A stretch of 64,000 bases of DNA from Acidimicrobiia bacterium (GCA_965203555.1 CBDBCY010000004.1:2048001-2112000); one strand, 5' to 3'; positions 1-44,755 are shown, counted from the stretch's first letter. The notes: generated from the sequence alone by a model not told the origin. Made by a program: numbers and translations.

Positions 1-229
1 CGGCATGCCCAAGTCCTGGGCGTTGAGCTTCATGATCAATGACGAGGAGGCTCCGACCGGCCGGCCGGCGGGCGCTCTGGCCTGGGCGGGCCTGGCCAAC
101 CTCTACTACTGGATCGATCGCCAGAACGATGTTGGGGGTTTCTGGGCCACCCAGATCTTCCCGTTCGCCGATGGGACATCGGTTGGCGGTTTCATGGACT
201 TCGAGACCGCGATCTACAACAACCTGTAG
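1..229 (+). CDS. C-terminal part of a beta-lactamase-fold serine hydrolase/esterase (5' truncated by window)
   Basis: [26 protein letters not shown]...[10 protein letters not shown] is the typical C-terminus of class C beta-lactamase-like esterases; stop TAG 227-229. Confidence 0.8.
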
Positions 230-259
230 GGAGACCTGCACAAGCTCACATTGATTAAA

Positions 260-294
260 GAGATGGCTCCCCAGGTCATGCCGGGAGCCATCTC
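260..294. terminator. Hairpin between convergent genes, probable bidirectional terminator
   Basis: Perfect 12-bp inverted repeat GAGATGGCTCCC / GGGAGCCATCTC with 11-nt loop. Confidence 0.7.
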
Positions 295-346
295 CTCATA
301 AAACCCTCTTGAGTTGTGGCCGACTGCGTCCCTGTGGGGAACCCGG

Positions 347-1293
347 CTAGCGGTAGCCGCCGCCTCGCCGGAGGCTGTCGAGCGTTACGGCGATGATCAG
401 TATGGCGCCGCGGACTACCGACTGCCAGTAGATCTGCACTTGCAGGAGGATCAGTCCGTTCTGGACGACCCCGATTATCAACAGTCCCAGGAGGGTTCCC
501 AAAAGGCCTCCCCGTCCTCCGCTCAGGGCGATGCCGCCCAGCAGTACTGCGGCGATGATGTCCAACTCGGCGCCGTTCAGGGCGCTTGGCAGGGCCGTTC
601 CGCTCTGGGAAGTGAGCATCAGACCCGCCAACCCCGCCAGGCAGGCCTGGGCCACGTAGGTCCAGCCTCGCAGGCGGTCGACCCTGATGCCGACGTTGCG
701 GCAAGCTTCGCTGTTTCCGCCCACGGCGTAGAGGTGATTGCCTGCCACGGTGAATCGCATGAAGCACATTCCCAGCACCACCACCGCCAGGAACAACCAG
801 ACGGTTATGGGGGCTCCCAGCCAGGACCCTCTTCCCAGTTCGCTCCACGCGTTGACCCCGATCACGATGTTGTCGCCGCCCGTGGAAACGAAGGCCAAGC
901 CCCGATAGAAGAGCAGGGTTCCCAGGGTGGCGATGATCGGGTTGATTCTGAACTTGACGATCAACAGGGCATTGAACGCGCCCAGCACTCCTGCGGCGGC
1001 TACTCCCAACACACCAACCAGGACGCTGTTGACGTCCAGGGTGATCAGGCTGGCAGTGACCATACCCGCCACTGCCGCCACTGCCGCCATGGACAGGTCC
1101 AATCCTCCGGCGATCATCACCACCGTCAGACCGATAGCGATCAGACCTCTGATAGAAATGGCCTGTCCGATATTGATGAAGTTGCGGGTCGTGAAGAAAA
1201 ACTCGGACTGCCAACTGAATAGGGCAATCATCAACAACAGGGTGATGAGCAGACCGATCAGCGTCCAGTTGTCCTGCCTCTTGAAAACCGAGA

Positions 1294-1297
<4 letters not shown>
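347..1297 (-). CDS. Monosaccharide (CUT2/RbsC-like) ABC transporter permease
   Basis: Hydrophobic; GLTVVMIAGGLDLS, IIATLG, YAVGGN, ELDIIAAVLLGG..L.GGRG motifs; ATG 1297 overlaps the ATPase stop (ATGA). Confidence 0.92.
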
Positions 1298-2067
<770 letters not shown>

Positions 2068-2089
2068 ACCTCTCTACCGATAAGGAAGG

Positions 2090-2133
2090 GAGGTACTCGG
2101 CGTACGAACCGGGGCTCGAAACGCCGAGTCCTC
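2090..2133 (-). terminator. Intra-operon hairpin after the binding-protein gene (partial terminator or mRNA stabiliser)
   Basis: GAGG(T)ACTCGGCGT ... ACGCCGAGTCCTC inverted repeat. Confidence 0.55.
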
Positions 2134-2152
2134 TTTTGTTAGTTGGCTGTCT

Positions 2153-4186
2153 CTATCCGGGATAGAGGTCGAAGACGTTGTCCCGGGTTACGGGTGAGAC
2201 CGAGGGTATTAGCCGTTCGGGAACGGTCTTTCCTTCGATCAGGTCGACGATGGCCGGCACCAGGTAGGTCCCGTAGCGCTCGGGGAAGTAGGAGATGGTG
2301 GCTTTGAACACAGACTCCTCGTCAGAGCGCTCCCGCAAATCCACCAGCGCCTCGTCGGAGGCGCCCAGGCTGGCAGCGGCCGCGTGACCCAGGTAGCCAC
2401 TCTGCTCCAAAGCCAGCGCGCAGTCCACGCCGGGCTGGTCGCTGTGGCCGAAGCACAGCACGTGCTGTGCGCCGGGGTTGGCAGTCGCCCAGGTGGTCAC
2501 GTTGGGAAGGGTGTCGGTCAGGCCCTCGGTGGGGATGTCGTGGATGTTCTCGTCCGGGATGTCGAACGATTCCCGCACGCCGTCTCGGGCGCCGTCGGCG
2601 CGGGCCTTGTGGACCGGCACATCCGGAGTCCACACCAACAGCAGATGGGTGTCCTCGGGCGCCCAACCCTGCTCTTGGGCGAAGCCGGCCAGATATCGGC
2701 CGGCCTCCAGCGCCGCGTTGTAGTTGTCCGGGCCGAAGGCCACGCATCCGGGGTGGGGTCCGTCGTAGGAGACACATGGAATCCCGGCGTCGTGGAAGAT
2801 GCCGGCGATCAGTTCTTCGGTGCCGGCGATCCAGTTGGCGAAGATCACTCCGTCAACCTCTTGGGTTACCAGCAGGTTGGAGCACTCCACGGTCCGCTCC
2901 TGGTCGTAGGCGTTGTCGCAGTAGACGATCTCCACGCCCATCTCGGCGGCGATGGCGTTGATGTTGTCGGTCACGCTGTCCGTAAACGGGATACCCGACA
3001 GGCCGTCGCCGTAACCGATCCTGAACGCTCCGGAAGCTTCTCGAATCACGGCTTCGTACTCATCCTCCTCAGCCATGGCTGCTTCGTCCAGTTCGCCTCC
3101 CGGATACAGTTCCTCGACGTTGTCACGGGTGACAGGCTCCACCGAGGGGATGATCCTCTCGGGCAGGTCGGTGCGGTCTTCAATGAGATCGACGATGATG
3201 GGCACCAGATACTGTCCGTAACGCTCGGGGAAGTATGAGATAGTGGCCTTGAACACAGACTCGTCATTGCCACGCTCGCGCAGCTCCACGAGGGCTTCAG
3301 TGGATGCACCGGTTCCCGCGGCCGCGGCGTTGCCCAAGAAGCCGTTCTGTTCCAGGGCCAATCCGCAGTCGACGCCGGGCTGGTCGCTGTGGCCGAAGCA
3401 CAGCACATGCTTGGCATCGGGGTTGGCGATCGACCAGGTGGTCACGTTGGGCAGTGTGTCGGTCAGGCCCTCGGTGGGAATGTCGTGGATGTTCTCGTCC
3501 GGGATGTTGAACGACTCCCGCACGCCGTCGGTGGCGCCGTCGGCCCGAGCCTTGTGGACCGGCACGTCCGGGGTCCACACGAGCAGCAGCTCAGTCTCTT
3601 CGGGCGCCCATCCCTGCTCAAGGGCGTACTGCGCCAGGAAGCGACCGGCGGCTACTCCGGCCTCGTAGTTGTCGGGGCCGAAGGCCACGCATCCGGGGTG
3701 GGGGCCGTCGTAGGAGACGCATGGAATCCCGGCATCGTGGAAGATATTGGAGATCAGTTCTTCGGTGCCGGCGATCCAGTTGGCGAAGATCACTCCGTCG
3801 ACTTGTTGGGTTACCAGCAGGTTGGAGCATTCCACGGTCCGCTCCTGGTCGTAGGCGTTGTCGCAGTAGACGATCTCCACGCCCATCTCGGCGGCGATGG
3901 CGTTGATGTTGTCGGTCACGCTGTCGGTAAATGGAATTCCCGACAGTCCGTCACCGTAACCGATCTTCCACGGTTGTTCGGCCGGGCGGATCACGGCTTC
4001 GTAGGGGCCGGAAGGCGCCTCTGGCTCCTCCTCCATTACCTCATCTTCGGGGGCCTCTTCAACCGCGGCGGCCGTGGTCTCCGGGGCGGCGGTGGTGCCA
4101 GGAGCCTCATCCTCGTCTCCCCCGCAGGCGGCCACCAATAGGGCAATGACCGCCACTCCAACTATCAGCTTGCGTGACATTCTCAA
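2153..4186 (-). CDS. Sugar ABC substrate-binding lipoprotein with two tandem periplasmic-binding domains
   Basis: Lipobox LVAAC, acidic linker, then two very similar ~300-aa RbsB-like domains (PF.DSV.DNI, DGVI, GPDNY.A, TISYFPERYG, PVTRDN). Confidence 0.9.
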   Translation of the reverse strand: MRMSRKLIVGVAVIALLVAACGGDEDEAPGTTAAPETTAAAVEEAPEDEVMEEEPEAPSGPYEAVIRPAEQPWKIGYGDGLSGIPFTDSVTDNINAIAAEMGVEIVYCDNAYDQERTVECSNLLVTQQVDGVIFANWIAGTEELISNIFHDAGIPCVSYDGPHPGCVAFGPDNYEAGVAAGRFLAQYALEQGWAPEETELLLVWTPDVPVHKARADGATDGVRESFNIPDENIHDIPTEGLTDTLPNVTTWSIANPDAKHVLCFGHSDQPGVDCGLALEQNGFLGNAAAAGTGASTEALVELRERGNDESVFKATISYFPERYGQYLVPIIVDLIEDRTDLPERIIPSVEPVTRDNVEELYPGGELDEAAMAEEDEYEAVIREASGAFRIGYGDGLSGIPFTDSVTDNINAIAAEMGVEIVYCDNAYDQERTVECSNLLVTQEVDGVIFANWIAGTEELIAGIFHDAGIPCVSYDGPHPGCVAFGPDNYNAALEAGRYLAGFAQEQGWAPEDTHLLLVWTPDVPVHKARADGARDGVRESFDIPDENIHDIPTEGLTDTLPNVTTWATANPGAQHVLCFGHSDQPGVDCALALEQSGYLGHAAAASLGASDEALVDLRERSDEESVFKATISYFPERYGTYLVPAIVDLIEGKTVPERLIPSVSPVTRDNVFDLYPG
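2156..4003 (-). repeat. Intragenic tandem duplication, offset ~945 bp
   Basis: ATCACGGCTTCGTA at 3045-3058 and 3990-4003; long nearly identical DNA stretches in both copies. Confidence 0.9.
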
Positions 4187-4261
4187 CCTTTCTCTCTTTC
4201 AACTGTGATGGTGACGAAAATGGTCTTCGTCAAACCGGAGTCAGGTACACCGCCGTATGAC

Positions 4262-4269
4262 GGTATACC
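4262..4269. promoter_or_regulatory. Possible GntR-family operator upstream of the ABC operon
   Basis: Palindrome GGTATACC with a related GGTACACC just upstream; short, so weak. Confidence 0.3.
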
Positions 4270-4333
4270 ACCATTTCCGGTCAGAAAAATAGCCTAACCC
4301 CGCCTATCCCTCAAAAGCCAACCTTGACGTTCA

Positions 4334-5632
4334 CTATTTTGGCCGCGAAATGCCTTCGGCATATTCGACCATGCTGGCGTTGACGGGATCTTCAAATTGA
4401 AATTCACCAGGTTGCAGAGTGGCGACATCAACAGGCTGTCCTCCCCGAATTACCTCCCGCACCCGGCGAATGTGGCTTATGTCAGAGAGGGGGTTTCCCT
4501 CCGTAATGAGAAGATCGGCCGCCTTCCCCTCCGCGAGAGTGCCGGTGAGGTGGTGCACGCCGAGGCGGCGACTTCCTTCCCGGGTGGCAGCCGTGAGGAC
4601 TTGCGCCGGTGTGAGCCCGGACTTTGTCAACATCTGCAATTCGTCGTGGAGGCTGAAACCGGGGATCAAGTATGGCCAGGGCGCGTCGGTCCCCACGACG
4701 ATGGGCACGCCGGCTTCATAGAACTTGGGGATGACCCTTTGGATCTCTGCAACCGCCGCCATTCGGCCCCGGGATCCTTGCGGATCGTGCCGGTGGGGGA
4801 AGGCATCCCAGCACTCACGAATCTTGTCGGGCACCCACCGCAGCCGCGGATCGGGCCGGGAGGCGAAGTGGCTGAGACGAGCCAGGCGATCCCAGACGAT
4901 GACAGTGGGACATAGCGCCGTGTTCGCCTCGATCAGTGCTTTCGTTATGTCCTCCAGATCAGCCAGATGGGTGCCGTCGAGGGGGTGAATGATCCCGCTC
5001 AGGTGCTGAAGTTCGGCCACGCCCGCCCCGGCGGCTTCCAGCGCGTTCACCTCTCCCAGGTGGGCGACTACCGGCACCCCGTTTCTTCTCCCCGCTGCCA
5101 CGGCCGCCTTGACCTGCTCCAGGTCCAGGTGAACGTAGAGCTTGATCTCGTTTACCCCGGCGGCGGCCAGCAGGTCGATCTTGGCGGCCACCGCCTCGGG
5201 ATCGGCGTGGCCTTCTCCGAGGCGAGGCCAGTTGACGTGCTCACCGTCCAGAACCGGGCCGCAGCAGCGCACCCGGGGAGTCGGCCGGGGGTCGGCCGCA
5301 AGTCGGCTACGCAGCCCCAGTATCCAGTCAAGGTCGTTGCCGATGTCCCGCACCGTGGTCACACCGGCAGCCAGGAGAGCGGGAACCATCCACGAGGCCA
5401 TGTGAATGTGGGCATCGATCAGCCCGGGCATGAGGGTGCATCCCGGAAAGACCATACGGTCGACGTCACCTGGCAGGGTCCTGGCATCCGCCACTCCTTC
5501 GATCTTGCTCCCTGATATCACCAGGGCCTTCCCCGATTGAGGCTCGGAATCCGGTGGATTCCACACCAGGTCTGGAACCAGCGCCAAGCGCGGTGAGCGT
5601 GGGTGTTGGGAGGGAGGAGATCGATGTTGCAT
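4334..5632 (-). CDS. Metal-dependent amidohydrolase (amidohydrolase superfamily)
   Basis: PGLIDAHIH, AGVTTVRD, KLY, VAH, LQH, VGTD, GKAADL motifs; start at ATG 5632 (the longer ORF overlaps the divergent SDR). Confidence 0.88.
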   Translation of the reverse strand: MQHRSPPSQHPRSPRLALVPDLVWNPPDSEPQSGKALVISGSKIEGVADARTLPGDVDRMVFPGCTLMPGLIDAHIHMASWMVPALLAAGVTTVRDIGNDLDWILGLRSRLAADPRPTPRVRCCGPVLDGEHVNWPRLGEGHADPEAVAAKIDLLAAAGVNEIKLYVHLDLEQVKAAVAAGRRNGVPVVAHLGEVNALEAAGAGVAELQHLSGIIHPLDGTHLADLEDITKALIEANTALCPTVIVWDRLARLSHFASRPDPRLRWVPDKIRECWDAFPHRHDPQGSRGRMAAVAEIQRVIPKFYEAGVPIVVGTDAPWPYLIPGFSLHDELQMLTKSGLTPAQVLTAATREGSRRLGVHHLTGTLAEGKAADLLITEGNPLSDISHIRRVREVIRGGQPVDVATLQPGEFQFEDPVNASMVEYAEGISRPK

Positions 5633-5713
5633 GCAGTGGACCCGGTTGTCAGCGAGATTTACCCTACCGGATGAGGACCGCAGAAGCCAGCCTCGCCCTA
5701 GCCTTCTGAGACA

Positions 5714-6493
5714 ATGACTGACGACCAACTCTCCTTGGGGGCGGGACTCTCGGGGCGCGGGGTGATAGTCACCGGCGCAGCCAGCGGGATCGGACGAGCG
5801 ACTGCTCGTCTCGCCGCGGCTTGCGGGGCCCGGGTGTGTGGGGTGGACCTGAACGGTCCGGCCTTGCGGGCGGAGAAGGAGCAATGGGACGATCCCGGTC
5901 GTCATCTGGCAGTGGAGATCGACTTGACCGGCGACGATGCTCCTCACACGGTGGTTGAGACCGTGCTGGAGGAGTTCGGCGACCTGTGGGGACTGGTCCA
6001 CTGCGCGGGAGTGCTGGTCCGCCGATCCAGCCCTGCCGAGGTGACCCGACAGGAATGGGATCTCCAGCACAGCGTGAACCTGAAAGCCTCCTTCTTCATC
6101 AACCAGGCAGTGGGCGAGGCGCTGAAAGCCCGCGGCGGGGGTGGGCGTATGATCACTCTCAGTTCGCAAGGGTGGTGGACGGGCGGAAGCCATGGTGCGG
6201 TGGTCTATTCCGCTTCGAAGGGGGGCATCGTCTCCATGTGCCGCGGTCTGTCCACCTCTTACGCTCCCCACGGGATCATGGTGAACTCCATCGCGCCCGG
6301 GGTGGTGGACACCCCCATGCTGGGGATTGGACTAACTGAGGCCGATCTCGAGGCGATCGCCGCCTCCTGCCCCATGGGAAGATTGGCGAGGCCTGAGGAG
6401 ATCGCCCAGGTTGCGGTGTTCCTGCTGTCCGCCCATGCCAGCTACATCTCGGCCGCCACCATCAATGTCAGCGGTGGTCTGCTCTTTTACTGA
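5714..6493 (+). CDS. SDR-family NAD(P)-dependent oxidoreductase
   Basis: TGAASGIG, catalytic S...YSASK, NSIAPG. Confidence 0.93.
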   Translation: MTDDQLSLGAGLSGRGVIVTGAASGIGRATARLAAACGARVCGVDLNGPALRAEKEQWDDPGRHLAVEIDLTGDDAPHTVVETVLEEFGDLWGLVHCAGVLVRRSSPAEVTRQEWDLQHSVNLKASFFINQAVGEALKARGGGGRMITLSSQGWWTGGSHGAVVYSASKGGIVSMCRGLSTSYAPHGIMVNSIAPGVVDTPMLGIGLTEADLEAIAASCPMGRLARPEEIAQVAVFLLSAHASYISAATINVSGGLLFY

Positions 6494-6606
6494 TCCGGTC
6501 GTCGGCCAACCGACAAATACATCAGCAGGGGAGGACCAACCTGGGATTCTTCCCTATAGTCGGGGCTGTTGGATTACAGATAGAGGACAAGTCAAGGAGG
6601 GCACTC

Positions 6607-8067
6607 ATTACTGCTAAAAACACAAGTTTACGTGGAGGGGTAGGCCGGACCGACATAACCCCGCCCGTTCCCGCGGACCTGGTCGGATATGTACGCCGTT
6701 GGCGGCCTGCCATCGAGGTGCGATCTCCGCTGACGGCCACCGCCTTGGTGCTGGAGTCCGAGACCGAGCGAGTGGCGATACTGGGAATAGACCTGGCCAT
6801 TCTCAACCCCGAATACGCCACCATGATCCGGGAGATGATCGCCGAAGCGATCGACACGCGCCCCGAGTCGGTACTGTTGAATGTGAGCCACACCCATGCC
6901 GGGCCGCACACCCCCGGGCGCGTGAAGCTGGGAGGCCTGCTGGATGAGATCAGGCCTTCCGAGCAGGCCTATGCGGAGATACTTCCACACCAGATGGTCT
7001 CCGCGGCCCTGATCGCTGCGGAGAACACGGTGCCGGTGAGAGTGGGTTCGACCAGCACCGAGGTGCAGGGATTGACGGTGAACCGCCGCGAGCGGGTGCA
7101 AGGCGTGGAGGGGACGGTCGGGTCGCTAAACACCATCCTGGGCTGGAATCCCGACGGTCCGATCGACCGGGATGCGGGGGTGATCAGGGTCGACCGCCAG
7201 GACGGTTCGCCCCTGGCGGTGGTGGTGAGTTTCGGCTGCCACCCGGTGGTGGTGGGGCCCGAGGACCCGGCTATCAACCCCGACTTCCCCTGGCCGCTGC
7301 GAGACGCCGTGGAAGAGGCCACCGGGGCGATGTGCGTGTTCCTGCAGGGCGCCGGTGGGAATGTCCTGCCCTTGCAGGCGTTCATACCCGACCCCGCCGC
7401 GGGGGTGGAGTTCGGCGAGAAACTGGCGGCGGAGGCGCTGCACGCCATGGCTGGCATCGAAACGTTTGAAACTGAAATCGAGCGCCATGATTACGGTTCG
7501 GTCACTCCCATCGTCCTCTACCGGGTGGTGAGGGCCGAGAACCAGCCTCCCCAGGAGTTGGCCGTGGCTTCCACCGTGGTGGACCTGCCGCTCAAGAGAG
7601 TGCCCTCGATCGAAGAAGTGCAGGCCGAGCGGGATCACTACCGAGGCAACCTGGAGAAAGCGAAAGAGGCAGGCCTCGGACCCGAGGAACTCAATCCCAT
7701 CCAATACCACATCAGCTGGGCGGAAGCGGCGATCGCCCAGTTGGAGGAGGCCCCCTATGACCGGGTCCCGGCCTTCATTCAGGCGATCAGGATTGGAGAC
7801 ACCGCCATCGTTGCCATCCCCGGGGAAGCTTTTGCCGAGATCGCCCTGGCCATCAGGGACCGGTCCCCCACAGACCGGGCCAGCACTCTCTTCTCCGGAT
7901 ACTCCAACGGGGTTATTTCATACCTGCCCAGCGCCGCTGAGTACCCTCATGGTGGTTACGAGGTGGACTATGCCCACCATAGTTACGGTTTGATCGAACA
8001 GGTAGCCCCCGAGACGGAGGCGATCCTGGTTGAGGCAGGAGTGGCGATGCTCGAGGAGTTGTGGTAA
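6607..8067 (+). CDS. Neutral/alkaline ceramidase-like Zn hydrolase; probable ATT start
   Basis: SHTHAGP, NRR, FGCHPVV, FLQGAGGN, PGE.F, GYSNG..SYLP, GGYE; the family N-terminus (LRGGVGRTDITPP..LVGY) lies in frame upstream of the first canonical start (GTG 6718); AAGGAGG 6 nt before ATT 6607. Confidence 0.8.
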   Translation: MTAKNTSLRGGVGRTDITPPVPADLVGYVRRWRPAIEVRSPLTATALVLESETERVAILGIDLAILNPEYATMIREMIAEAIDTRPESVLLNVSHTHAGPHTPGRVKLGGLLDEIRPSEQAYAEILPHQMVSAALIAAENTVPVRVGSTSTEVQGLTVNRRERVQGVEGTVGSLNTILGWNPDGPIDRDAGVIRVDRQDGSPLAVVVSFGCHPVVVGPEDPAINPDFPWPLRDAVEEATGAMCVFLQGAGGNVLPLQAFIPDPAAGVEFGEKLAAEALHAMAGIETFETEIERHDYGSVTPIVLYRVVRAENQPPQELAVASTVVDLPLKRVPSIEEVQAERDHYRGNLEKAKEAGLGPEELNPIQYHISWAEAAIAQLEEAPYDRVPAFIQAIRIGDTAIVAIPGEAFAEIALAIRDRSPTDRASTLFSGYSNGVISYLPSAAEYPHGGYEVDYAHHSYGLIEQVAPETEAILVEAGVAMLEELW

Positions 8068-9086
8068 TGGTTCGGATGCGGATGAACCAGGCGGTGGCTG
8101 CCGCCCTGGGTGATGAGATGCGCGAAGACCCCAGCGTGGTGGTGTTCGGGGAAGACGTGGCGGCCGCCGGAGGGCCGTTCAAGACTTCGGACGGGCTGTT
8201 GGAGGAGTTCGGGCCCCTACGGGTTCGGGACACTCCCATCTCCGAGATGGGGTTCCTCGGCATGGCCGTAGGCGCCGCGGCCTCCGGTCTTCGCCCGGTG
8301 GCCGAAATCATGTTTATCGAGTTCTTGGGGGTGGCGCTCGACCAGGTGGTGACGGAAGCTGCCAAATTCCACTTCCTTTCGAACGGGGTGTTCACATGCC
8401 CGATGGTGGTGCGGGCTTCGATCGGCGCCGGCTTGGGTTTCGGGTGCCAGCACTCTCAGACGTTTGAGAACTGGATGAGTCATGCCCCTGGGCTGAAGAT
8501 GGCGGTCGTGTCCGGACCCCAATCCGCCTACGGGTTAATGCGATCGGCCATCCGGGATCCCAATCCGGTGGTGGTGCTGGAACCGCGGGCTCTCTACGGT
8601 GGCCGCGCCCAGGTGACTATCGGGGAGGAGGGGATCATTCCGCTGGGGGAAATCGCCAGGGTCCGGGAAGGCGACGACGTGACCATCATCACCGCAGGGG
8701 CGATGCTGCGGGTGGCCATGGCCGCCGCCAAGGCTTCGGATGACTGGTCGGCGGAGGTGATCGACCTTCAAACTCTTATCCCCTGGGATCGTGAGGGAGT
8801 CGTTTCGGCAGTGCGGCGGACCGGTCGGTTGGTGATCGTGGAGGAAAGCCCCTACACCTCCGGTTGGGGGACGGAAATCTCCTCCTACGTCGGCTCGCGT
8901 TTGTTCGGCGAACTCAGGGCGCCGGTGCTTCGGGTCACATGCCCCGATGTTCCCGTGCCGTTCGGGAGAGAACTGGAGTTGCGCTACATGCCGAACAAGG
9001 AGTACGTAACAGAGCAGATCGATCAACTGATGGCCACCGGCCGGGTACCCGACCCCTGGTGGGTGGGAGAAGGGAGCAGCGTCTGA
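8067..9086 (+). CDS. TPP-dependent dehydrogenase E1 beta subunit (acetoin/pyruvate dehydrogenase-like)
   Basis: VFGEDV, DTPISE, GLRPVAEIMF, QHSQ, VRRTGRL; TAATG coupling to upstream gene. Confidence 0.93.
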   Translation: MVRMRMNQAVAAALGDEMREDPSVVVFGEDVAAAGGPFKTSDGLLEEFGPLRVRDTPISEMGFLGMAVGAAASGLRPVAEIMFIEFLGVALDQVVTEAAKFHFLSNGVFTCPMVVRASIGAGLGFGCQHSQTFENWMSHAPGLKMAVVSGPQSAYGLMRSAIRDPNPVVVLEPRALYGGRAQVTIGEEGIIPLGEIARVREGDDVTIITAGAMLRVAMAAAKASDDWSAEVIDLQTLIPWDREGVVSAVRRTGRLVIVEESPYTSGWGTEISSYVGSRLFGELRAPVLRVTCPDVPVPFGRELELRYMPNKEYVTEQIDQLMATGRVPDPWWVGEGSSV

Positions 9087-10078
9087 TGGGCGACGGAACG
9101 AAGATGGAACGCCGTTTGGCTTTGGCTGACGACCGGGTGGCGCGCTACGAGCGGATGGTGGAGATACGCGCTTTCGAGGATCGGGTGCAGGGCCTCTTTG
9201 CCGAGGGACTGGTGCATGGCACTACTCATACCGCCCAGGGACAGGAAGCGGTGGCGGTGGGCATTGCCGCCGTGGCTCGCACCACCGATACGGTCACCTG
9301 CACCTACCGGGGACATGGCATGGGATTGGCCCTCGGAATGACCCCTGAGTTGATCCTGGGAGAGATCATGGGTCGGGAGATGGGATGCATCGGCGGCATC
9401 GCCGGTTCCATGCATCTCGTCGACCGGGAACTGGGCCTGCTTCCTACTTTCGCCATCATCGGCGCCGGTATTCCGGTGGCGGCGGGGGCGGCTCTGACCG
9501 CCCAGGTGAAGGGAACCGATGATGTGGCGATCGGAGTGTTCGGCGACGGGGCGTCCAATATCGGCGCCTTCCATGAAGGTCTGAACCTGGCCGCTATCTG
9601 GAATCTGCCGGTGGTGTTCATCTGCGAGAACAACCAGTACGGCGAGTACAGCCGGATCAACCTGACCACGCCCATCGACGATCTGGCCGACCGGGCCGTC
9701 TCCTACGGGATCCCTGGAGTCATGGTGGATGGGCAAGATCCCGACAAGACGGTGGTGGCGGTGAGCGATGCTCTGGAGAGGGCGCGGTCCGGCGAAGGTC
9801 CGACCCTGCTCGAGATGAAGACCTACCGTTACGCCGGGCACTCCCGGGCCGACAAGGCCGAGTACCGACCCGAGGGCGAGTTCGAGCGCTGGTACCAGCG
9901 GGATCCGATCAACACCTTCCGGGCAAGACTGGAATCAGAGGGCCTGCTGGCCGAAGGGCAGGCTGCCGAAATCGACCGGCAGGTGGCAGCCCGCATAGAG
10001 GCGGCGGTGGAGACCGTGAAAACAAGTCCCCCTGCCGGTGTCGATGCGATGTTCCGGAACATCTACGCGCCCGCATAG
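9086..10078 (+). CDS. TPP-dependent dehydrogenase E1 alpha subunit
   Basis: GQEA, TYRGHG, GSMH, TPP motif GDGA...ENN, TYRY.GHS; TGATG coupling. Confidence 0.93.
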   Translation: MGDGTKMERRLALADDRVARYERMVEIRAFEDRVQGLFAEGLVHGTTHTAQGQEAVAVGIAAVARTTDTVTCTYRGHGMGLALGMTPELILGEIMGREMGCIGGIAGSMHLVDRELGLLPTFAIIGAGIPVAAGAALTAQVKGTDDVAIGVFGDGASNIGAFHEGLNLAAIWNLPVVFICENNQYGEYSRINLTTPIDDLADRAVSYGIPGVMVDGQDPDKTVVAVSDALERARSGEGPTLLEMKTYRYAGHSRADKAEYRPEGEFERWYQRDPINTFRARLESEGLLAEGQAAEIDRQVAARIEAAVETVKTSPPAGVDAMFRNIYAPA

Positions 10079-10095
10079 AAAGGATGTACTAACCG

Positions 10096-10332
10096 ATGCA
10101 GTTTGAGGTGAAGATGCCCAGGCTGGGCGAGACAGTGGACGAAGTGGTGCTTCTGGAGTGGATGGTCGAGGTGGGCGACGAGGTGGAGGAGGACACCGAA
10201 CTTGCCTTGGTCGAAACTGACAAGGTGGAGACCGAGGTGCCTTCTCCCGTGGCGGGAACCGTGATCGACATACTGGTGGAAGAGGACGCCGAAGTCGTCA
10301 CCGGAGAGGTGATCTGCGTCATTGAGACGTAG
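10096..10332 (+). CDS. Stand-alone lipoyl-carrier domain protein
   Basis: MPRLGE..EW.V.VGD.V, lipoylation motif ETDKV, SP..G; 78 aa with no linker or acyltransferase domain. Confidence 0.9.
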   Translation: MQFEVKMPRLGETVDEVVLLEWMVEVGDEVEEDTELALVETDKVETEVPSPVAGTVIDILVEEDAEVVTGEVICVIET

Positions 10333-10375
10333 CCGTCAGGCTTTGCCTCGGGGGTTGGGGATGGCGACGCAGGCG

Positions 10376-10456
10376 ATTTCCACCCGCGACGCCGGGAGGC
10401 GATAGCCGAGCCTGATCCGTCGAGGGGCCCCGATCCCTCGGCGCGCGGGTGGAAAT
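10376..10456 (+). other. Long imperfect stem-loop in intergenic region
   Basis: ATTTCCACCCGCG (10376-10388) pairs perfectly with CGCGGGTGGAAAT (10444-10456); extended by CGCCGGG/CTCGGCG with one G-U pair. Confidence 0.55.
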
Positions 10457-10614
10457 TGGCCCCTAAAGGCCGATTAGGGCGCCGGGGAGGGCGAATTCAA
10501 CCCGGTCGGCGTGGAAAAAACCACCGTTGGCGCTCCGAAATTCCGCTCTGTGGGAATAGCATGAGGAGTGGCTAGTTGTCAAATCAGTGGACAACATTGT
10601 GGAAGGAGGTGGAA

Positions 10615-11934
10615 ATGGAAGGTTTAGATACCTATTTCCGAATCTCAGAGCGCGGTTCCTCGGTAGGCACCGAGGTCCGCGCGGGCATCACCACATTCCT
10701 GGTGATGGCCTATATATTGTTCGTAAACGCCTTGATTCTCGGCGACGCGGGTCTCGATCCTGCTGCCGTGGCAGCCGGGACGGCGCTGGTAGCCGCCATC
10801 ATGACGATCGCGATGGGGGTTTTCTCCAACTACCCGATCGCCATGGCGGCCGGTCTCGGGCTCAACGCAGTGGTGGCCTACAGCCTGACGGCCCAGGGCC
10901 TCTCGATAGAGGGAGCAATGGGCGTCATAGTTTGGGAGGGTGTCATAGTCACCGTCCTCGTCTTGTTTGGCCTGCGGGAAGCCGTGATGGCAGCTATACC
11001 GACCAGCCTCAAGTACTCGATCGGGGTGGGCATAGGCCTCTTCATCCTGTTCATCGGGTTGGTCAACGGCGGGCTGGTCCACGGAGAAGGGGGCACGATC
11101 GTAGAGTTCGTGTTTCCCACCGAAGCCGGTCAGGGGGTGACCTTGATCGGGGTACTGATCGGTGTGGTTCTGGTGGCGCGCAAGGTCAAGGGGGCGATGA
11201 TCATCACGATCGTGGCAACCACCGTCGTGGCCCTGATTGCAGGGGTTGCCAGCGTGCCGGACAGTATCGCGGCATCCGTGAGCCTCGAGACCCTCTGGGG
11301 CTTCGACCTCGGCAACTCGTTTGCGGAACTCGGCTTCCTGTCAGCGATCTTGGCAATCTTCACGCTGATGCTTGCCGACTTCTTCGATACGATGGGCACC
11401 GCCACTGCCATCGTCGAGCAGGCAGGATTGACCGATGAGGAAGGCAAGATCCCTCGTCTCAAAAGCCTCCTGCTGGTGGACTCGCTCGGCGCCGCGCTCG
11501 GCGGCGTGGCCGGAGTCAGCTCGAACACGAGCTACATCGAGAGCTCGGCGGGGGTGGCAGAAGGAGGAAAGACCGGTCTCACGTCCGTGGTCACGGGGAT
11601 ACTCTTCCTGATCGCCATTGTCCTGTCGCCGCTGGCCGGGATCGTCCCGGCACAGGCGACTGCACCGGTGCTGATCCTCATCGGGTTCCTCATGGTCGGG
11701 TTGCTCAAGCACATCGACTTTACGGACATGGAAGAAGGATTGCCGGCGCTGCTGGCCATCATTCTCATGCCCTTGACGTACTCGATCACAGTCGGGATAG
11801 CGGCCGGGTTTGTGACGCACACGCTGATCAAGGTGGTGAGGGGCAAGTCGAGCGAGATTCACGTTTTGATGTGGATAGTCTCGATTGCCAGCCTGGTCTA
11901 CTTTGCCAGCGACTGGATCGAGCTGTTCATCTAG
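10615..11934 (+). CDS. NCS2/AzgA-family purine permease
   Basis: GITTFLVMAYILFVN, GLGLNA, DFFDTMGT, YIES..GV.EGG.TGLT, MPLTYSI; SD AGGAGG. Confidence 0.93.
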   Translation: MEGLDTYFRISERGSSVGTEVRAGITTFLVMAYILFVNALILGDAGLDPAAVAAGTALVAAIMTIAMGVFSNYPIAMAAGLGLNAVVAYSLTAQGLSIEGAMGVIVWEGVIVTVLVLFGLREAVMAAIPTSLKYSIGVGIGLFILFIGLVNGGLVHGEGGTIVEFVFPTEAGQGVTLIGVLIGVVLVARKVKGAMIITIVATTVVALIAGVASVPDSIAASVSLETLWGFDLGNSFAELGFLSAILAIFTLMLADFFDTMGTATAIVEQAGLTDEEGKIPRLKSLLLVDSLGAALGGVAGVSSNTSYIESSAGVAEGGKTGLTSVVTGILFLIAIVLSPLAGIVPAQATAPVLILIGFLMVGLLKHIDFTDMEEGLPALLAIILMPLTYSITVGIAAGFVTHTLIKVVRGKSSEIHVLMWIVSIASLVYFASDWIELFI

Positions 11935-11955
11935 CCCCGTCCGGTTAGTTATATG

Positions 11956-11987
11956 TACGAGAGAGCGCTTCCCGGCGCTCTCTCGTA
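11956..11987 (+). terminator. Hairpin (probable terminator/attenuator) after the permease
   Basis: 13-bp perfect stem TACGAGAGAGCGC / GCGCTCTCTCGTA followed by TTT. Confidence 0.65.
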
Positions 11988-12065
11988 TTTCACATGCCGT
12001 GTATCCACCAGTAGCTGTATACAACGTTCCGGCAAATAGCGGACCTGCCAAAGGAGAACCTGGGA

Positions 12066-13082
12066 ATGGATAGCTTCGTCCGGGGCCTTCCAAAGACCGA
12101 GTTGCACATTCACATCGAGGGGACGCTCGAGCCGGAGATGATGTTTGAGATGGGGGAGCGCAACGGTGTGGCGTTGCCTTTCGGGTCTGTCGAAGAGGTG
12201 AGAGCAGCCTACGAGTTCGACGATCTCCAGTCTTTCCTCGACATCTATTACCAAGCTGCCGAGGTACTGCAAACCGAGGATGACTTCGCCCGGTTGATGG
12301 CGGCCTACCTGAGAAAGGCGGCATCCGACGGGGTGCGGCATGCGGAGATCTTCTTCGACCCCCAGACGCACACCGAGCGCGGTATCGGCATCGGGACGGT
12401 TATTCGGGGATTGGCGCGTGGACAACAAGAAGTAGCGGATGTGTCCTCGACCCTGATCCTGTGTTTCCTGCGTCATCTGCCGCCTGAATCGGCTGTCGAG
12501 GTGTTCGAGCAAGCCCGACCGTTCCTCGATTACCTCCAGGGGGTAGGACTCGATTCGGGCGAGTTGGGCAATCCTCCCGAGTTGTTCGCCGAGGCCTACC
12601 GCCGCGCCGTCGAGGCAGGCTTGAGGCCGGTCGCCCACGCCGGCGAGGAGGGCCCGGCGGAATACATCTGGTCGGCTCTCGACGTATTAGGTGTGGAGCG
12701 GATCGACCACGGGGTGCGCGCCGGAGACGACCCGACCCTGGTGGACAGGTTGATTAGGGAGCAGATTCCCCTGACCGTGTGTCCCCTCTCGAACCAAAAG
12801 CTCCAGGTGTTTCCCGATCTTCGAGACCACAATCTCAAGGAGTTGATGGATGCCGGAGTGCTGGTCACCGTCAACTCCGACGATCCTTCCTACTTCGGTG
12901 GTTACGTCGGAGATAACTACCTCGGTATCGCATCGGCCCTGGATCTATCCCGTGACGATCTGATCCAGCTAGCCCGCAATTCGGTGACAGCCTCCTTCCT
13001 GCCCGAGGGTCGGAAAGAGGCTCTCCAGAGGGAGATCACCGACTACATCATCTCCTCTTGGCCTGGATCCACCCAAGGGTGA
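12066..13082 (+). CDS. add: Adenine/adenosine deaminase (ADA fold, adenine-deaminase type)
   Basis: [49 protein letters not shown]. Confidence 0.92.
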
Positions 13083-13393
13083 ACTTGTTACCCGACAGAG
13101 CAAGAACGTCGTCCGGGCTCGCTCCTTTTCTGACATGCTTGAACGGAGCCTGCGCCGCTACCAGAACAGGGCCAGGAAGGCGGGCCAGGTCTGAATCCTG
13201 GGCCGCGTGAACGCAAGTCGATCTACCTTTTCGTAAAGCTTCTGGTCGGAGACCCTCACCGGGAACTGCTTTGCAAAGGTATCGTGCTCCCCCGTCGCAT
13301 AACCGGACAACGCGTGGGTGCGTTTCTTTAGACACAGATGTGGTTGTGTACTACAATTCGGGTGAAGATGGCTGAACACGGGAGGTTGTCATA

Positions 13394-13669
13394 GTGAAAG
13401 CTGTTCAACGAACGGCGCTGCGGGAGGCAGGGTTTACCGAGGCTCAGACAAATGCCTTGGCCATAGCACTCGAGCCGTTTGCAACCAGGGAAGACCTGAG
13501 GAGCATGGTGGAAGAGTTGCGTCATGACGTGGAAGAGTTGCGTCATGACGTGGGGGTGTTGCGTCATGATATGGGAGTGTTGCGTAATGATTTGCGGTGG
13601 ATGAAGTGGGTAGGTGGCGCTATCGGCGTAGCGGTGCTGACCGAAATGGTCAGTAGCCTCTTTCTTTGA
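13394..13669 (+). CDS. Small coiled-coil protein with C-terminal TM anchor (DUF1640/CCDC90-like)
   Basis: LREAGF.E.Q..AL, AT+EDL, heptad repeats, hydrophobic tail after LRWMKW; SD GGAGG. Confidence 0.7.
   Translation: MKAVQRTALREAGFTEAQTNALAIALEPFATREDLRSMVEELRHDVEELRHDVGVLRHDMGVLRNDLRWMKWVGGAIGVAVLTEMVSSLFL
13508..13591 (+). repeat. Four 21-bp tandem repeats encoding heptads (VEELRHD)
   Basis: GTGGAAGAGTTGCGTCATGAC x2, then two diverged copies. Confidence 0.85.
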
Positions 13670-13845
13670 AGCAAAGTCGGTTTCGAATCTGTCTGCGCTG
13701 TTTCCGTGCGTCTAGTACGCGCTTCGGCAGTCCGCTTTCTGCCGGAAGAGCGACTCTGGCGAATACGGCCCGAATATGACTTACCCTTACATCATGACGT
13801 CCCCGGCGTGACAGGCCGGGTGGCATTACCCAAGAGAGGTGGACC

Positions 13846-14256
13846 ATGGAAGCTTTGTTGATTATCGGTCGGATTATGTTCTCGTTGATTTTCCTGGGGG
13901 CGGGGATAGGACACCTTGCTCAACCCGGCGCCACCGCCGGGTATGCGGCGTCGCGGGGAGTTCCTGCCGCCGGGTTGCTGGCCCGGGTCTCGGGTGTGCT
14001 CATCGCCGCAGGCGGTCTCGGGGTCATTTTGGGGGTGTGGATGGACCTGGCCGCGCTCGGACTGGCGGTGTACGTGTTGCTGGCCGCCTTCATGGTCCAT
14101 CACTTCTGGTCCGACGAAGAGCCGACCAAGACCGCCGAGATGTCGATGTTCATGAAGAACCTATCTATCTGTGGTGCCGGACTGATCCTCTTCGCCATGT
14201 CCGCGACCGGCGCCGACATGGGCTGGGAACTGGGAACACGCCTGTTCAATCTCTGA
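13846..14256 (+). CDS. DoxX-family membrane protein
   Basis: IGRI.F..IF..AG..H, H.FW, FMKN..I.GA.L. Confidence 0.85.
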   Translation: MEALLIIGRIMFSLIFLGAGIGHLAQPGATAGYAASRGVPAAGLLARVSGVLIAAGGLGVILGVWMDLAALGLAVYVLLAAFMVHHFWSDEEPTKTAEMSMFMKNLSICGAGLILFAMSATGADMGWELGTRLFNL

Positions 14257-14337
14257 GATACGCGTTCTTCGGACAGCGGTAGGAAGGATTGTCCGCCTAT
14301 TATCAGCCGGAGGAATCGAACACGGGAGGCGGCAAAA

Positions 14338-14572
14338 GTGAAAGCAGTCCAACGGACGGCCCTGCGGGAGGCGGGATTCGCCGAGCCTCAGATGAATGCG
14401 TTGGCCATGGCTCTAGAGCCGCTGGCAACCAAGGAAGACTTAAAGGGCGTCGTAGAGGTGATTCGCTATGACCTGGAAGCGATTCGTAATGACTTGCGAT
14501 GGATTAAAATGGGTAGGAGGAGCCGTCGGCATCGCGGTGCTGGCCGAACTGGTCGGCGGTCTCTTTTCTTAG
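14338..14572 (+). pseudogene. Frameshifted paralogue of the DUF1640-like gene at 13394
   Basis: Same N-terminus MKAVQRTALREAGF; an extra A in ATTAAAATGG (~14506-14509); removing it restores WVGGAVGIAVLAELVGGLFS* ending at TAG 14570-14572. Confidence 0.7.
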
Positions 14573-14646
14573 AGGGGTTCGGATCCCGAACGGCGGCTAA
14601 TAGGAAGCCGTGGGATCTTTGACCAGGCTCCTGTAGGATTCTGAAG

Positions 14647-15738
14647 GTGGGCACCAACCAATCCCCGCTAAAAGTTGCCGTAATCGGTGCCGGTTGGTGG
14701 GCGGTGGAGAACCACCTTCCCGTGCTGGCGTCCCGTCCCGACGTGGAAATCCGGGCTGTCTGTCGCAAGGGCGCTGCGGAAGTACAAGCGGTAGCAGAAC
14801 GGTTCGGCGCGCCGGTGGCGACCGAAGATCATGAACTCCTGCCCTGGGACGAGCTGGATGCGGTGGTGGTTTCATCGCCGCACAGCCTTCACCACGAGCA
14901 CACCATGGCCGCCCTGGACCAGGGACTGCATGTGATGTGCGAAAAGCCGCTGGCGATCACTGGCGCAGATGCCTTCGATATGGTTACTAGGGCGGACGAA
15001 CAGGGGTTGGTGTTACTTGTTCCGCACGGATGGCAGTTCTTTCCCCAGGCTGCGGTTGCCCGTCAATGGATCAAAGCAGGTCGCATCGGCCGTTTGGAGC
15101 ATGTCGTCGCCCAGATGGCGTCTCCCGCTCGGGGCCTTTTTTCCGGCGAAGAGGACTCTATCCCAGGCGCGGAGAGCCCACCCGAGCCATCCACCTGGGT
15201 GGGGAAGGAGGGCGGGTACGCCTACGGGCAACTGAGCCACCTCTACTCATTGGTGTTCTGGCTGACCGGCTTGGTTCCCACCGAGGTGATGGGGGCAGTC
15301 AGTCCCGGCCCGGCAGGAAGCGACATGTATGACGCCTTTCTGTCTACCACCCGCCAGGGTCCTCTCATCTCTGTGTCCGGAGGAGCGGGCGTGCCGACCT
15401 CCCAGCGGCATCACATGGAGGTGCGGGTATTCGGAACTGAAGGAGTGGTGATCGTGGACCTGGAGCGGGACCGCATAGAGGTGGTCCGTGAGGACGGAGA
15501 CGACTACTCCTTTCCCCTGATGAGAGGCGCGGCCATCTATCCGGGGACGCTACCGGTGCACGCCTTCTGCGATCTGGCGTTGGGCTACCTCGACGCCGTA
15601 AACCACGGCGATGCGGTTGCGTCCGCCCTTGGCATTGCGGTGATCGAAGCGGCTCTTCGCTCTGCCCGCACCCGCCGCTCGGAGCCGGTTTCTGCTGCGC
15701 TCAGTGCAGCAGAAGCAAAGGGGATAAGACTGGATTAG
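14647..15738 (+). CDS. Gfo/Idh/MocA-family oxidoreductase
   Basis: VAVIGAG, VVVSSP...H, HV.CEKP, GG...Q.SH. Confidence 0.9.
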   Translation: MGTNQSPLKVAVIGAGWWAVENHLPVLASRPDVEIRAVCRKGAAEVQAVAERFGAPVATEDHELLPWDELDAVVVSSPHSLHHEHTMAALDQGLHVMCEKPLAITGADAFDMVTRADEQGLVLLVPHGWQFFPQAAVARQWIKAGRIGRLEHVVAQMASPARGLFSGEEDSIPGAESPPEPSTWVGKEGGYAYGQLSHLYSLVFWLTGLVPTEVMGAVSPGPAGSDMYDAFLSTTRQGPLISVSGGAGVPTSQRHHMEVRVFGTEGVVIVDLERDRIEVVREDGDDYSFPLMRGAAIYPGTLPVHAFCDLALGYLDAVNHGDAVASALGIAVIEAALRSARTRRSEPVSAALSAAEAKGIRLD

Positions 15739-15939
15739 CTGGGCCACCCTGCGAATACTCCTCGGTTCACGTCAAACCAGGCAATAACGCACGGCGACTC
15801 TTCTCTTTAGGATCTACTTGCCCGCCGTCTGCCTCCACGGACAACGCCGAACAACCGGCCACACCTGGATTGGAAGACGCAGGATTCGCTGAAAAAAATC
15901 TGTCTCGACCCGGCGAGGCAATGATTCTCAACCTAGCAT

Positions 15940-15973
15940 GATCATTAAATGATCGGGTCATATGATGATCCGA
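15940..15973. promoter_or_regulatory. Tandem palindromic operator candidates
   Basis: GATCAT-TAA-ATGATC (15940-15954) and TCGGGTCAT-ATG-ATGATCCGA (15953-15973) in an AT-rich stretch upstream of the operon. Confidence 0.5.
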
Positions 15974-15997
15974 GTAGTGAAGAATAGAAGGTGTGCA

Positions 15998-27313: not shown

Positions 27314-27445
27314 AATCCTCAGGGTATCGGACCACGGTCCCAACCAGGTTATCCGGCCCGAAGCCGGACTCCGACCCGGGTTCGGCTCACCGCACGGCGC
27401 CCGGGGGAGCAGCTACCGGGGGACCCAGCTTTCAGAATAAGGGTC

Positions 27446-28306: not shown

Positions 28307-28362
28307 GGCAGTCGTTCCTTTCGTCATCGGGATGTAGCGTGCTATTAAAGTTAGGCCGACCG

Positions 28363-29781: not shown

Positions 29782-29920
29782 TACCGGCCTCTGCCCGGGG
29801 ACTCTCCCCGCCAATTAACTCTCTTCCCCACCGAAGCGCCGGAGGGTCTGTGCTCTACCATTACCTAATAGGGTTTTCTTGCAGAAGCAGGGGCTGAGAG
29901 GTCCCGGAACAGGAGAAGTG

Positions 29921-41402: not shown

Positions 41403-41448
41403 TCTCGGGCTTCGGATCCGAAGAAGCCGCCGATGGGTGGGGACAGGC

Positions 41449-42222: not shown

Positions 42223-42234
42223 AGGGGTGGATCA

Positions 42235-43146: not shown

Positions 43147-43149
43147 CAG

Positions 43150-44732: not shown

Positions 44733-44755
44733 TTGTCACACCCCCTGTGCATACT
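44733..44755 (+). promoter_or_regulatory. Putative RecA-NDp/PafBC-like promoter giving a leaderless transcript
   Basis: TTGTCAC-N10-CATACT ending 6 nt before ATG 44762. Confidence 0.45.

Follow-up and report, generated by a model that had tools for sequence, protein, structure and literature searches.

The DNA analyzed here is a 64-kb stretch (64,000 nucleotides, called the window throughout) from an Acidimicrobiia bacterium, a sponge-associated actinobacterium, and the subject of interest is a group of five + strand genes at positions 5714-10332. In order, these encode a short-chain dehydrogenase/reductase (SDR), a ceramidase-like hydrolase, the beta and alpha E1 subunits of a thiamine diphosphate (ThDP)-dependent enzyme of the 2-oxoacid-dehydrogenase type, and a protein of 78 residues that consists of a lipoyl domain only. 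An earlier note, made from the sequence alone, had described this gene set, the overlapping stop and start codons that join its three middle genes, the lack of an acyltransferase (E2) or dihydrolipoamide dehydrogenase (E3) in the window, and a divergent sugar ATP-binding cassette (ABC) importer and amidohydrolase (347-4186 and 4334-5632, both - strand). All of these are confirmed by open reading frames (ORFs), Pfam, NCBIfam and tblastn, and the codon overlaps can be read directly. The features of the group are as follows.

5714-6493, + strand: SDR resembling polyol/sugar dehydrogenases (adh_short_C2, 176 bits)
6594-6600, + strand: Shine-Dalgarno sequence AAGGAGG, 6 nt before the ATT start of the hydrolase gene (from the sequence)
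6607-8067, + strand: putative Zn hydrolase of ceramidase fold, 486 aa, ATT start (homologue coverage, comparison of start codons, fold)
8061/8067-9086, + strand: E1-beta, likely start at ATG 8067 (Pfam, NCBIfam, junction)
9086-10078, + strand: E1-alpha, ThDP-binding (E1_dh, 265 bits; junction; placement in a clade)
10096-10332, + strand: stand-alone lipoyl carrier, 78 aa, with K43 in the motif ETDK (Biotin_lipoyl, 79.7 bits)

The hydrolase and E1-beta genes meet in TAATG (8065-8069) and the E1-beta and E1-alpha genes in TGATG (9084-9088), overlaps which indicate that the three genes are translationally coupled; the carrier gene begins 17 nt after the end of E1-alpha. The best NCBIfam matches of the SDR are glucose 1-dehydrogenase and GolD/DthD, both under cut-off. 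RNA contigs match, at 99% identity or above, parts of the SDR gene, the SDR-hydrolase spacer, and the hydrolase, E1-beta and E1-alpha genes (window 6121-9429). They come from a single coral-labelled metatranscriptomic library of one study, in which DNA carry-over is possible and uncovered parts are uninformative, and are taken as a weak hint that the operon is expressed.

The E1 subunits resemble those of pyruvate dehydrogenase (PDH). E1-beta comprises a Transket_pyr domain (130 bits) and a Transketolase_C domain (112 bits), the best family matches are of PDH type and just under cut-off (TIGR03182, 322 bits; PRK09212, for E1-beta, 312.9 bits), and the closest solved relatives of E1-alpha are human PDH E1-alpha (190 bits) and a Thermus 2-oxo acid dehydrogenase (179 bits). 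In a quick maximum-likelihood tree of E1-alpha, the 35 hydrolase-linked sequences from Actinomycetota, that of the window included, form one clade (SH-aLRT 99) within which the order beta-alpha-carrier is kept, and the host genome's five other E1-alpha paralogues fall outside it. The carrier, in which K43 is the predicted site of lipoylation, is a separate ORF of 77-85 aa wherever it was aligned, and E40, T41 and K43 are invariant in 26/26 sequences from Actinomycetota and Chloroflexota; its match to the acetoin E2 model NF011457 (51.5 bits) covers only the N-terminus (positions 5-78 of 372). As judged from sequence, the subunits constitute a distinct orthologous clade of heterotetramer-type ThDP enzymes with a dedicated 77-85 aa carrier. 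The earlier note had allowed that the lipoyl ORF might be a truncated E2; its integrity and invariant lysine in all 26 cases identify it instead as a real carrier. An apparent fusion of E1-alpha and carrier in one relative (locus L020, 429-aa ORF) was rejected as an over-extended ORF. The host genome also contains E1-alpha/beta pairs at G000:C4:722-724 kb and 2966-2968 kb (open frames of 773 and 617 aa), and no E2 or carrier was detected adjoining either.

An automatic ORF call starts the hydrolase at GTG 6718, in a frame that is open farther upstream. The 486-aa reading from 6607 is covered to 99% by homologues of 472-490 aa. The orthologous start codon is ATG in L008, L009, L010 and L017 and ATT or ATC in L007 and L011-L016, and in every relative compared it is preceded by a purine-rich, Shine-Dalgarno-like stretch, of which the AAGGAGG of the window is one variant. 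Homologue coverage and the aligned start codons behind the purine-rich stretch thus place the gene at 6607-8067 with an ATT start. A conserved non-canonical start of this kind escapes ORF finders, here at a cost of 37 residues.

More than 1100 homologues of the hydrolase are found at E <= 0.001, most of them with a precomputed match to PF04734. The protein itself scores below the cut-offs of that model (24.8 bits versus 32.1; a second reading of 26 bits is also below) and of NCBIfam NF041649 (19.8 bits versus 1200). Its AlphaFold model (predicted local distance difference test, pLDDT, 88; predicted template-modeling score, pTM, 0.91) matches only neutral ceramidases in a Foldseek search of the PDB (2ZWS, 2ZXC and 4WGK; probability 1.0, TMq 0.63-0.67). 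Normalized to the targets, which have 630-688 aa versus 486 aa in the hydrolase, the TM score is 0.47-0.51, and the C-terminal ceramidase domain is missing from the hydrolase. The ESM Atlas returned ceramidase-named clusters only. Residues H95, H97, H212, E407, Y439 and Y451 are invariant across the aligned family (alignment A1, 24 homologues), and the HTH, HP and PGE motifs align to 4WGK with their HxH, H and E residues, which we take, from the ceramidase literature, to be Zn-binding. The protein as read has no N-terminal signal-like segment. It is probably a cytoplasmic Zn amidohydrolase of the pathway that the operon serves.

Distant plasmid paralogues of the hydrolase occur in a cluster of amino-sugar type that includes NagB-like, SIS, amidohydrolase and AGE epimerase genes, and in a haloarchaeal group in which the ceramidase-like gene stands with MR_MLE, GFO and TIM-barrel genes. 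These settings, together with the neutral-ceramidase fold and the aligned HxH, H and E residues, argue for an amidase, of which the most economical role would be a step on an N-acylated sugar derivative. A second ceramidase-like paralogue is encoded in the same genome outside the window (G000:C4:2231264-2232616, - strand, 32% identity), and no lipoyl or E1 gene was detected near it. A prediction of the complex of hydrolase and carrier scored 0.00 in two runs, with controls not folded, and has no weight either way.

Neither E2 nor E3 is encoded at the locus. In profile searches the genome's four matches to the E2 catalytic domain (PF00198) and five matches to E3 (PF02852) all lie outside C4:2048001-2112000, the interval of the window, and tblastn of four E2 catalytic domains against the window gave a best E of 0.034, with nothing near the lipoyl gene. 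The host genome holds four complete E2 genes and five E3-like genes elsewhere, so that supply in trans is possible. Counted over the whole genome there are six E1 pairs and only four E2 genes.

The gene set recurs. Hydrolase loci were gathered from species-representative genomes, and in the best 80 of 297 confirmed loci partner genes were counted by tblastn with the window proteins. A lipoyl gene is present in 52 of the 80, E1-alpha in 40, E1-beta in 40, an SDR in 58 and an E2 catalytic domain in 12; E1 and lipoyl genes occur together in 38, of which 37 encode no E2 catalytic domain. The co-occurrence without E2 that the earlier note proposed to search for is therefore found. For the 54 loci flanked on either side by 6 kb or more the corresponding numbers are 40 (lipoyl), 33 (E1-alpha), 33 (E1-beta), 7 (E2 catalytic domain) and 45 (SDR), and 43 of the 54 contain one or more genes of the lipoyl, E1 or E2 kinds. 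The exact gene order of the window is limited to 12 close relatives, all sponge-type Acidimicrobiia metagenome-assembled genomes (MAGs). In rearranged form the set is found in Poriferisocius-type Acidimicrobiia, Nanopelagicales, unclassified Actinomycetes, Dactylosporangium, Chloroflexota and Paenibacillus contaminans, and the partnership of hydrolase, E1 and lipoyl protein thus spans three bacterial phyla. Recurrence in close relatives and, rearranged, in other lineages shows that the arrangement is more than chance. No account of this gene set was found in a literature search that was weak on subscription journals and supplements, so that prior publication is possible. The module is real, and it is unusual in its gene content.

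The lineages differ in how much of E2 accompanies the hydrolase. An E2 catalytic domain stands beside it in 11 of the 80 loci. Ten of these are Chloroflexota-type loci with a separate ORF for the catalytic domain only (234-248 aa, DHRAVDG or DHRALDG motif intact), located between carrier and hydrolase. The other is that of Paenibacillus contaminans (L079), where IclR, MR_MLE, E1-alpha, E1-beta, E2, RidA, E3, hydrolase and SDR genes run in one direction, and where E2 is complete, with lipoyl, E3-binding and catalytic domains; an E3 gene was found at none of the 79 remaining hydrolase loci. The twelfth match (L054) is a distant conventional E2. Three further Chloroflexota loci have the carrier immediately ahead of the hydrolase and lack an E2 catalytic domain, and carrier and hydrolase genes are direct neighbors in L045, L047, L051 and L057 (gaps of 76-174 nt). 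In five Chloroflexota genomes the best E1-alpha (51-56% identity) is encoded elsewhere, with no carrier or E2 in its ~4-kb locus. Whether orthologous clusters include a separate E2 catalytic gene, a question on which the earlier note had staked its proposal, is thus answered with yes for 11 of the 80 loci and with no for 37 of the 38 that have E1 and lipoyl genes. The simplest reading of this distribution is a single system whose E2 would have been progressively unbundled, from a full E2 with E3 (Paenibacillus), to a lipoyl ORF with a catalytic ORF (Chloroflexota), to a lipoyl ORF only (Actinomycetota), where the catalytic and E3 functions would be provided in trans. According to one report, Actinomycetota already use lipoyl groups in trans for OdhA (PMC10415282).

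E2-less modules also occur without the hydrolase. The host genome has a second module of this kind (L005, 5576-9427, - strand; G000:C4:626.4-629.4 kb), which comprises E1-alpha and E1-beta (alpha first), a carrier of 77 aa, an SDR and a xylose-isomerase-like TIM barrel, and which has no hydrolase. Among 61 sampled genomes of the class, a lipoyl domain occurs in an open frame of <=140 aa in 10, the host included, and at E <= 1e-20 the hydrolase is found in the host and in none of the other 60. Five small-lipoyl loci were fetched from this sample, and in two, from 1.1-Mb genomes, the genes for E1-alpha, E1-beta and carrier are grouped. At L100 (G010:C2, 4663-12399; a 1.1-Mb genome) these three genes lie between sorbitol-type and mannitol-type phosphotransferase system (PTS) components, near a DRL-type oxidoreductase and a mannitol dehydrogenase. 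The hydrolase is therefore not required for an E2-less E1/carrier pair. Among hydrolase genomes that lack a carrier at the locus, 4/5 have a high-scoring free carrier elsewhere; together with the hydrolase-free modules, this makes it seem that the hydrolase clade needs the lipoyl system more than the reverse.

The immediate surroundings of the operon in the window are the following.

347-~1300, - strand: permease of a sugar-type ABC importer (ORF and translation)
1294-2067, - strand: ATPase of a sugar-type ABC importer (ORF and translation)
2153-4186, - strand: solute-binding protein, 677 aa, two tandem Peripla_BP_4 units (two Pfam stretches, direct repeat)
4334-5632, - strand: amidohydrolase (Amidohydro_1, Xaa-Pro-dipeptidase-like; Pfam, NCBIfam), start inferred at the ATG at 5632

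The importer (347-4186) is of the CUT2 sugar type by Pfam and NCBIfam and is divergent from the operon, with 81 nt between the amidohydrolase and the start of the SDR gene. A sugar importer is kept beside the operon in L007, L011, L013 and L016. The earlier note's view of a catabolic module linked with the import of sugars is supported. The binding protein of the importer is a head-to-tail duplicate (945-nt period, 78% DNA identity over 300 nt), and its counterpart in L007 appears to be a single unit. Rfam gave no match in window 1-16000, and a scan for promoters and terminators found sites no more numerous than in shuffled sequences.

Neighboring genes across the loci were clustered, and the clusters were named by Pfam and NCBIfam. 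An MR_MLE acid-sugar dehydratase, galactonate-dehydratase-like, often lies directly beside the E1 and carrier genes (L042, L043, L061, L066, L069, L070 and L083). The other families are phosphotriesterase (PTE)-family and Amidohydro_2 lactonase-like proteins, rhamnose mutarotase, zinc alcohol dehydrogenase, GFO/IDH/MocA oxidoreductase, xylose-isomerase-like TIM barrels, an arabinose/sulfoquinovose-isomerase-like protein, RidA, a protein like 2,4-diaminopentanoate dehydrogenase (DAPDH), a creatininase-family protein, CoA-transferase III, a CitE-like C-C lyase, MaoC, LacI regulators and sugar ABC importers. The majority of the families recur elsewhere in the window, at 27.4-31.0 kb and 39.0-46.8 kb.

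27455-28306, - strand: xylose-isomerase-like TIM barrel (tblastn with cluster representatives)
28339-29781, + strand: arabinose/sulfoquinovose-isomerase-like protein (tblastn with cluster representatives)
29879-31045, + strand: MR_MLE acid-sugar dehydratase-like protein (tblastn with cluster representatives)
39027-44262, + strand: genes for an amidase like the beta subunit of N,N-dimethylformamidase (DMFase), a second SDR, a PTE-family lactonase-like protein and a DAPDH-like protein (tblastn, gene maps)
46451-46822, - strand: RidA family protein (tblastn; Pfam of the cluster representative)

The SDR-PTE-DAPDH-like run lies directly upstream of SDR, hydrolase and E1 in the relatives L008, L012, L017 and L018, with a DMFase-like gene ahead of the upstream SDR run in L010 and L012. 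In the window, a DUF222/HNH endonuclease gene (44747-46000, + strand) stands between the DAPDH-like and RidA genes, and may mark a rearrangement that split the island. The product of the gene at 39027-41402 (+ strand) has 791 aa, a lectin-like region and a C-terminal domain resembling N,N-dimethylformamidase-beta, and its gene stands opposite a peptide-type ABC importer. At 25070-27343 (- strand) the window encodes a CotH kinase-like protein that has a lamin-tail domain. Acid-sugar dehydratases yield 2-oxo acids, and RidA handles enamine or imine intermediates. The linkage of MR_MLE and RidA to E1 accordingly favors a 2-oxo acid over a ketol as the substrate of E1, perhaps one derived from an amino-sugar acid.

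Taken together, the tentatively preferred explanation, which we consider slightly less likely than not, is that the five genes form one operon in a catabolic island of carbohydrate or amino-sugar type, that E1 and carrier are a unit of this pathway with E2 unbundled and acting in trans, and that the hydrolase is the pathway's amidase. The SDR, with the MR_MLE dehydratase in most relatives, would make a sugar-derived carbonyl compound, rather more probably than not a 2-oxo acid such as a 2-keto-3-deoxy or 2-keto aldonate, with a ketol as the less probable choice. E1 would cleave this compound and reductively acylate lipoyl-K43 of the free carrier, an E2 catalytic domain encoded elsewhere would unload the acyl-dihydrolipoyl carrier to CoA, and an E3 encoded elsewhere would re-oxidize it, both in trans. 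The hydrolase would most likely strip an N-acyl group from, or open an amide in, the imported substrate or an amino-sugar-acid intermediate. Deacylation of the substrate was one of two roles offered for the hydrolase by the earlier note, and it fits better than the other, replacement of E2.

Several observations weigh against this explanation. The window operon has no MR_MLE gene, the nearest being ~20 kb away, so that the source of a 2-oxo acid is deduced from relatives, and the isomerase, GFO and TIM-barrel genes beside E1 in Poriferisocius-type loci would suit a ketose substrate. A stand-alone E2 catalytic ORF was found neither in the host genome nor in five further cluster-bearing genomes of Actinomycetota; OdhA-like frames (1229-1617 aa) are present in four of these five, and the host genome has no OdhA-like PF00198 match. 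Paenibacillus E1-alpha falls outside the clade in the tree, so that its operon may be analogous and not orthologous. Chloroflexota have the hydrolase between thioester enzymes, with the E2 catalytic ORF upstream and CitE-like and MaoC genes downstream, and in one Chloroflexota MAG (L048, 7266-9473) an E2 catalytic domain and the hydrolase are joined in one in-frame 735-aa fusion. This adjacency and fusion hint at a closer link of the hydrolase to the lipoyl/thioester step than would be expected of a distant upstream amidase. The fusion may be genuine or an assembly artifact. It has no clean full-length counterpart among the best 150 matches from 1.84 billion representatives, and thus depends on one assembly; two junction-spanning fragments (P0175 and P0225) alternate good and junk stretches and look frameshifted, and a search for longer fused hydrolases (852-2430 aa) found six unrelated architectures only.

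The alternative that survives best, although we consider it somewhat unlikely, concerns the substrate only and is compatible with either route of unloading: E1 would be an oxidative transketolase or acetoin-type enzyme that converts a ketose or ketol, made by the SDR or an isomerase, to an aldehyde and a glycolyl- or acetyl-lipoyl carrier. The window operon's lack of a dehydratase and the arabinose/sulfoquinovose-isomerase-like, GFO and xylose-isomerase-like TIM-barrel genes that directly precede E1-beta in L020-L027 would fit such a substrate, as would the SDR genes that adjoin the E1/carrier genes in the window, L005 and L104, and the E1 and carrier genes in the sorbitol/mannitol PTS loci of 1.1-Mb genomes. 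There is also a precedent in the ThDP and lipoyl enzymes of the QncN/QncL/QncM and SclQ1-4 systems, which capture a C2 unit from a ketose phosphate (PMC6335953). Against it, the E1/carrier genes have MR_MLE and RidA as their tightest companions in Paenibacillus and most lineages, E1 finds its best family matches in models of PDH type, if just under cut-off, and no acyl carrier protein (ACP) or other acceptor was seen, although no search was aimed at ACP. Of the earlier note's suggestion that the SDR makes a ketol which E1 cleaves, the ketol survives as a possibility, and the genetic linkage speaks for a 2-oxo acid.

An unlikely alternative is that the hydrolase cleaves the S-acyl-dihydrolipoyl carrier, frees the acid and takes the place of E2, giving an E2-independent oxidative cleavage. 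Much of the genetics would accord with this: hydrolase and free carrier co-localize in 52/80 loci and are direct neighbors in four; the hydrolase is translationally coupled to E1-beta in the window and fused in frame to an E2 catalytic domain in L048; most hydrolase genomes that lack a local carrier (4/5) have a high-scoring one elsewhere; and 37/38 loci with E1 and carrier encode no E2 catalytic domain. There is a precedent for a hydrolase with lipoyl thioesterase activity in ABHD11, which is a glutaryl-lipoyl thioesterase according to PMC12643935. However, replacement of E2 is needless in Chloroflexota, with their intact E2 catalytic ORF, and in Paenibacillus, with its complete E2 and E3, and the presence of these beside the hydrolase indicates that it is not a general stand-in for E2. 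Modules of E1 and carrier exist without it (L005 in the host, L100, L101 and L104), and of the 10 class-sample genomes with small lipoyl ORFs only the host has the hydrolase; moreover, the ceramidase fold is known for amide hydrolysis only, and hydrolysis would waste the thioester. The earlier note's idea that the hydrolase releases the S-acyl group in place of E2 is weakened accordingly, and the hydrolase probably does not replace E2.

Broader, and more doubtful still, is the proposal that this would be the first enzyme of the ceramidase fold to act on a lipoyl arm, hydrolyzing or transferring the S-acyl group of the carrier (or an N6-acyl-lysine group). The adjacency of E2 catalytic ORF and hydrolase, the Chloroflexota fusion and the co-localization in three phyla would then be the footprint of a direct partnership, and a lipoyl carrier would be where sugar-derived acyl groups are both processed and set free, with no classical E2 core. 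Action as a lipoamidase or de-acylase on the carrier's lysine amide, for regulation or repair, is very improbable: ceramidases cleave medium- and long-chain N-acyl amides, which may resemble N6-lipoyl-lysine, and carrier and hydrolase do co-localize, but an enzyme that inactivates its operon partner is ill-suited to catabolic operons, the distant paralogues lie in sugar and amino-sugar clusters without a lipoyl protein, and the second paralogue of the host lies away from any lipoyl gene. That the operon is a decaying one for PDH or acetoin dehydrogenase with a leftover of E2, suggested by the PDH-like family scores of the E1 genes and the lack of a local E2 and E3, can hardly be credited, given a carrier that is intact (77-85 aa) with its lysine in 26/26 aligned loci of two phyla, no E2 remnant downstream of it or elsewhere in the window, intact and translationally coupled genes, and a conserved E1 clade.

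If the preferred explanation of an E1/carrier unit served in trans is correct, the lineages compared here display a graded unbundling of E2 in a system of the 2-oxoacid-dehydrogenase type, from full E2 and E3, through separate carrier and catalytic ORFs, to the carrier only, which would extend a theme, familiar from actinobacteria, in which lipoyl groups and catalytic domains act in trans. A large uncharacterized branch of the ceramidase fold would also become connected with lipoyl-dependent chemistry and with the catabolism of sugars or amino sugars in the cytoplasm, giving a handle on its function. The pathway may represent a novel route of catabolism in symbionts of sponges, acI-type actinobacteria of freshwater and Chloroflexota of soil, and the cultured carriers of the system, Paenibacillus contaminans and Dactylosporangium sp. 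CA-233914, make it testable.

Comparison with known systems shows which parts are familiar. With complexes of the PDH and branched-chain 2-oxoacid dehydrogenase (BCKDH) type the locus shares E1-alpha (PF00676), E1-beta (PF02779 and PF02780) and a lipoyl domain with its conserved lysine, and differs in a carrier without E3-binding or catalytic domain, the absence of E2 and E3 from the locus, the order beta-then-alpha, the sugar-catabolic setting and the ceramidase-fold hydrolase alongside. In the mixed PDH-ODH complex (ODH, 2-oxoglutarate dehydrogenase) formed by actinobacterial OdhA/AceF, lipoyl and E2 catalytic domains are likewise on different polypeptides, but the lipoyl domains there are part of a full E2p, whereas here the lipoyl domain is a free 78-aa protein with a dedicated E1. 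The acetoin dehydrogenase system (AcoA/AcoB/AcoC/AcoL) also has catabolic E1-alpha and E1-beta subunits of similar size and a lipoyl group; AcoC has a second domain after its lipoyl domain, and AcoL, the E3, is encoded in the operon. By contrast, only the lipoyl part of E2 is present here, the window lacks E3, and butanediol or acetoin genes were not seen.

The QncN/QncL/QncM and SclQ1-4 systems have in common with the locus a ThDP-binding subunit, a pyrimidine-binding/transketolase-C subunit and a lipoyl domain. In those systems the lipoyl domain forms one protein with an acyltransferase, an ACP serves as acceptor and the cluster is biosynthetic, whereas here the carrier has a single domain and the setting is catabolic; tblastn with the E2 catalytic domains found no acyltransferase in the window, and no ACP was seen, none having been specifically searched for. 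ABHD11, which has an alpha/beta-hydrolase fold, is mitochondrial and has a repair role, and bears no relation in sequence or fold to the ceramidase-like protein. Neutral ceramidases (Pseudomonas 2ZWS/2ZXC, human 4WGK) share the fold of the catalytic domain and the HTH, HP and PGE motifs with the hydrolase, which has 14-18% identity to them, is shorter (486 versus 630-688 aa), lacks the C-terminal domain and occurs in a carbohydrate context. What is known here is chemistry of the 2-oxoacid-dehydrogenase type, and what is new is the joining of a probably unbundled E2 and a free carrier to an uncharacterized family of the ceramidase fold.

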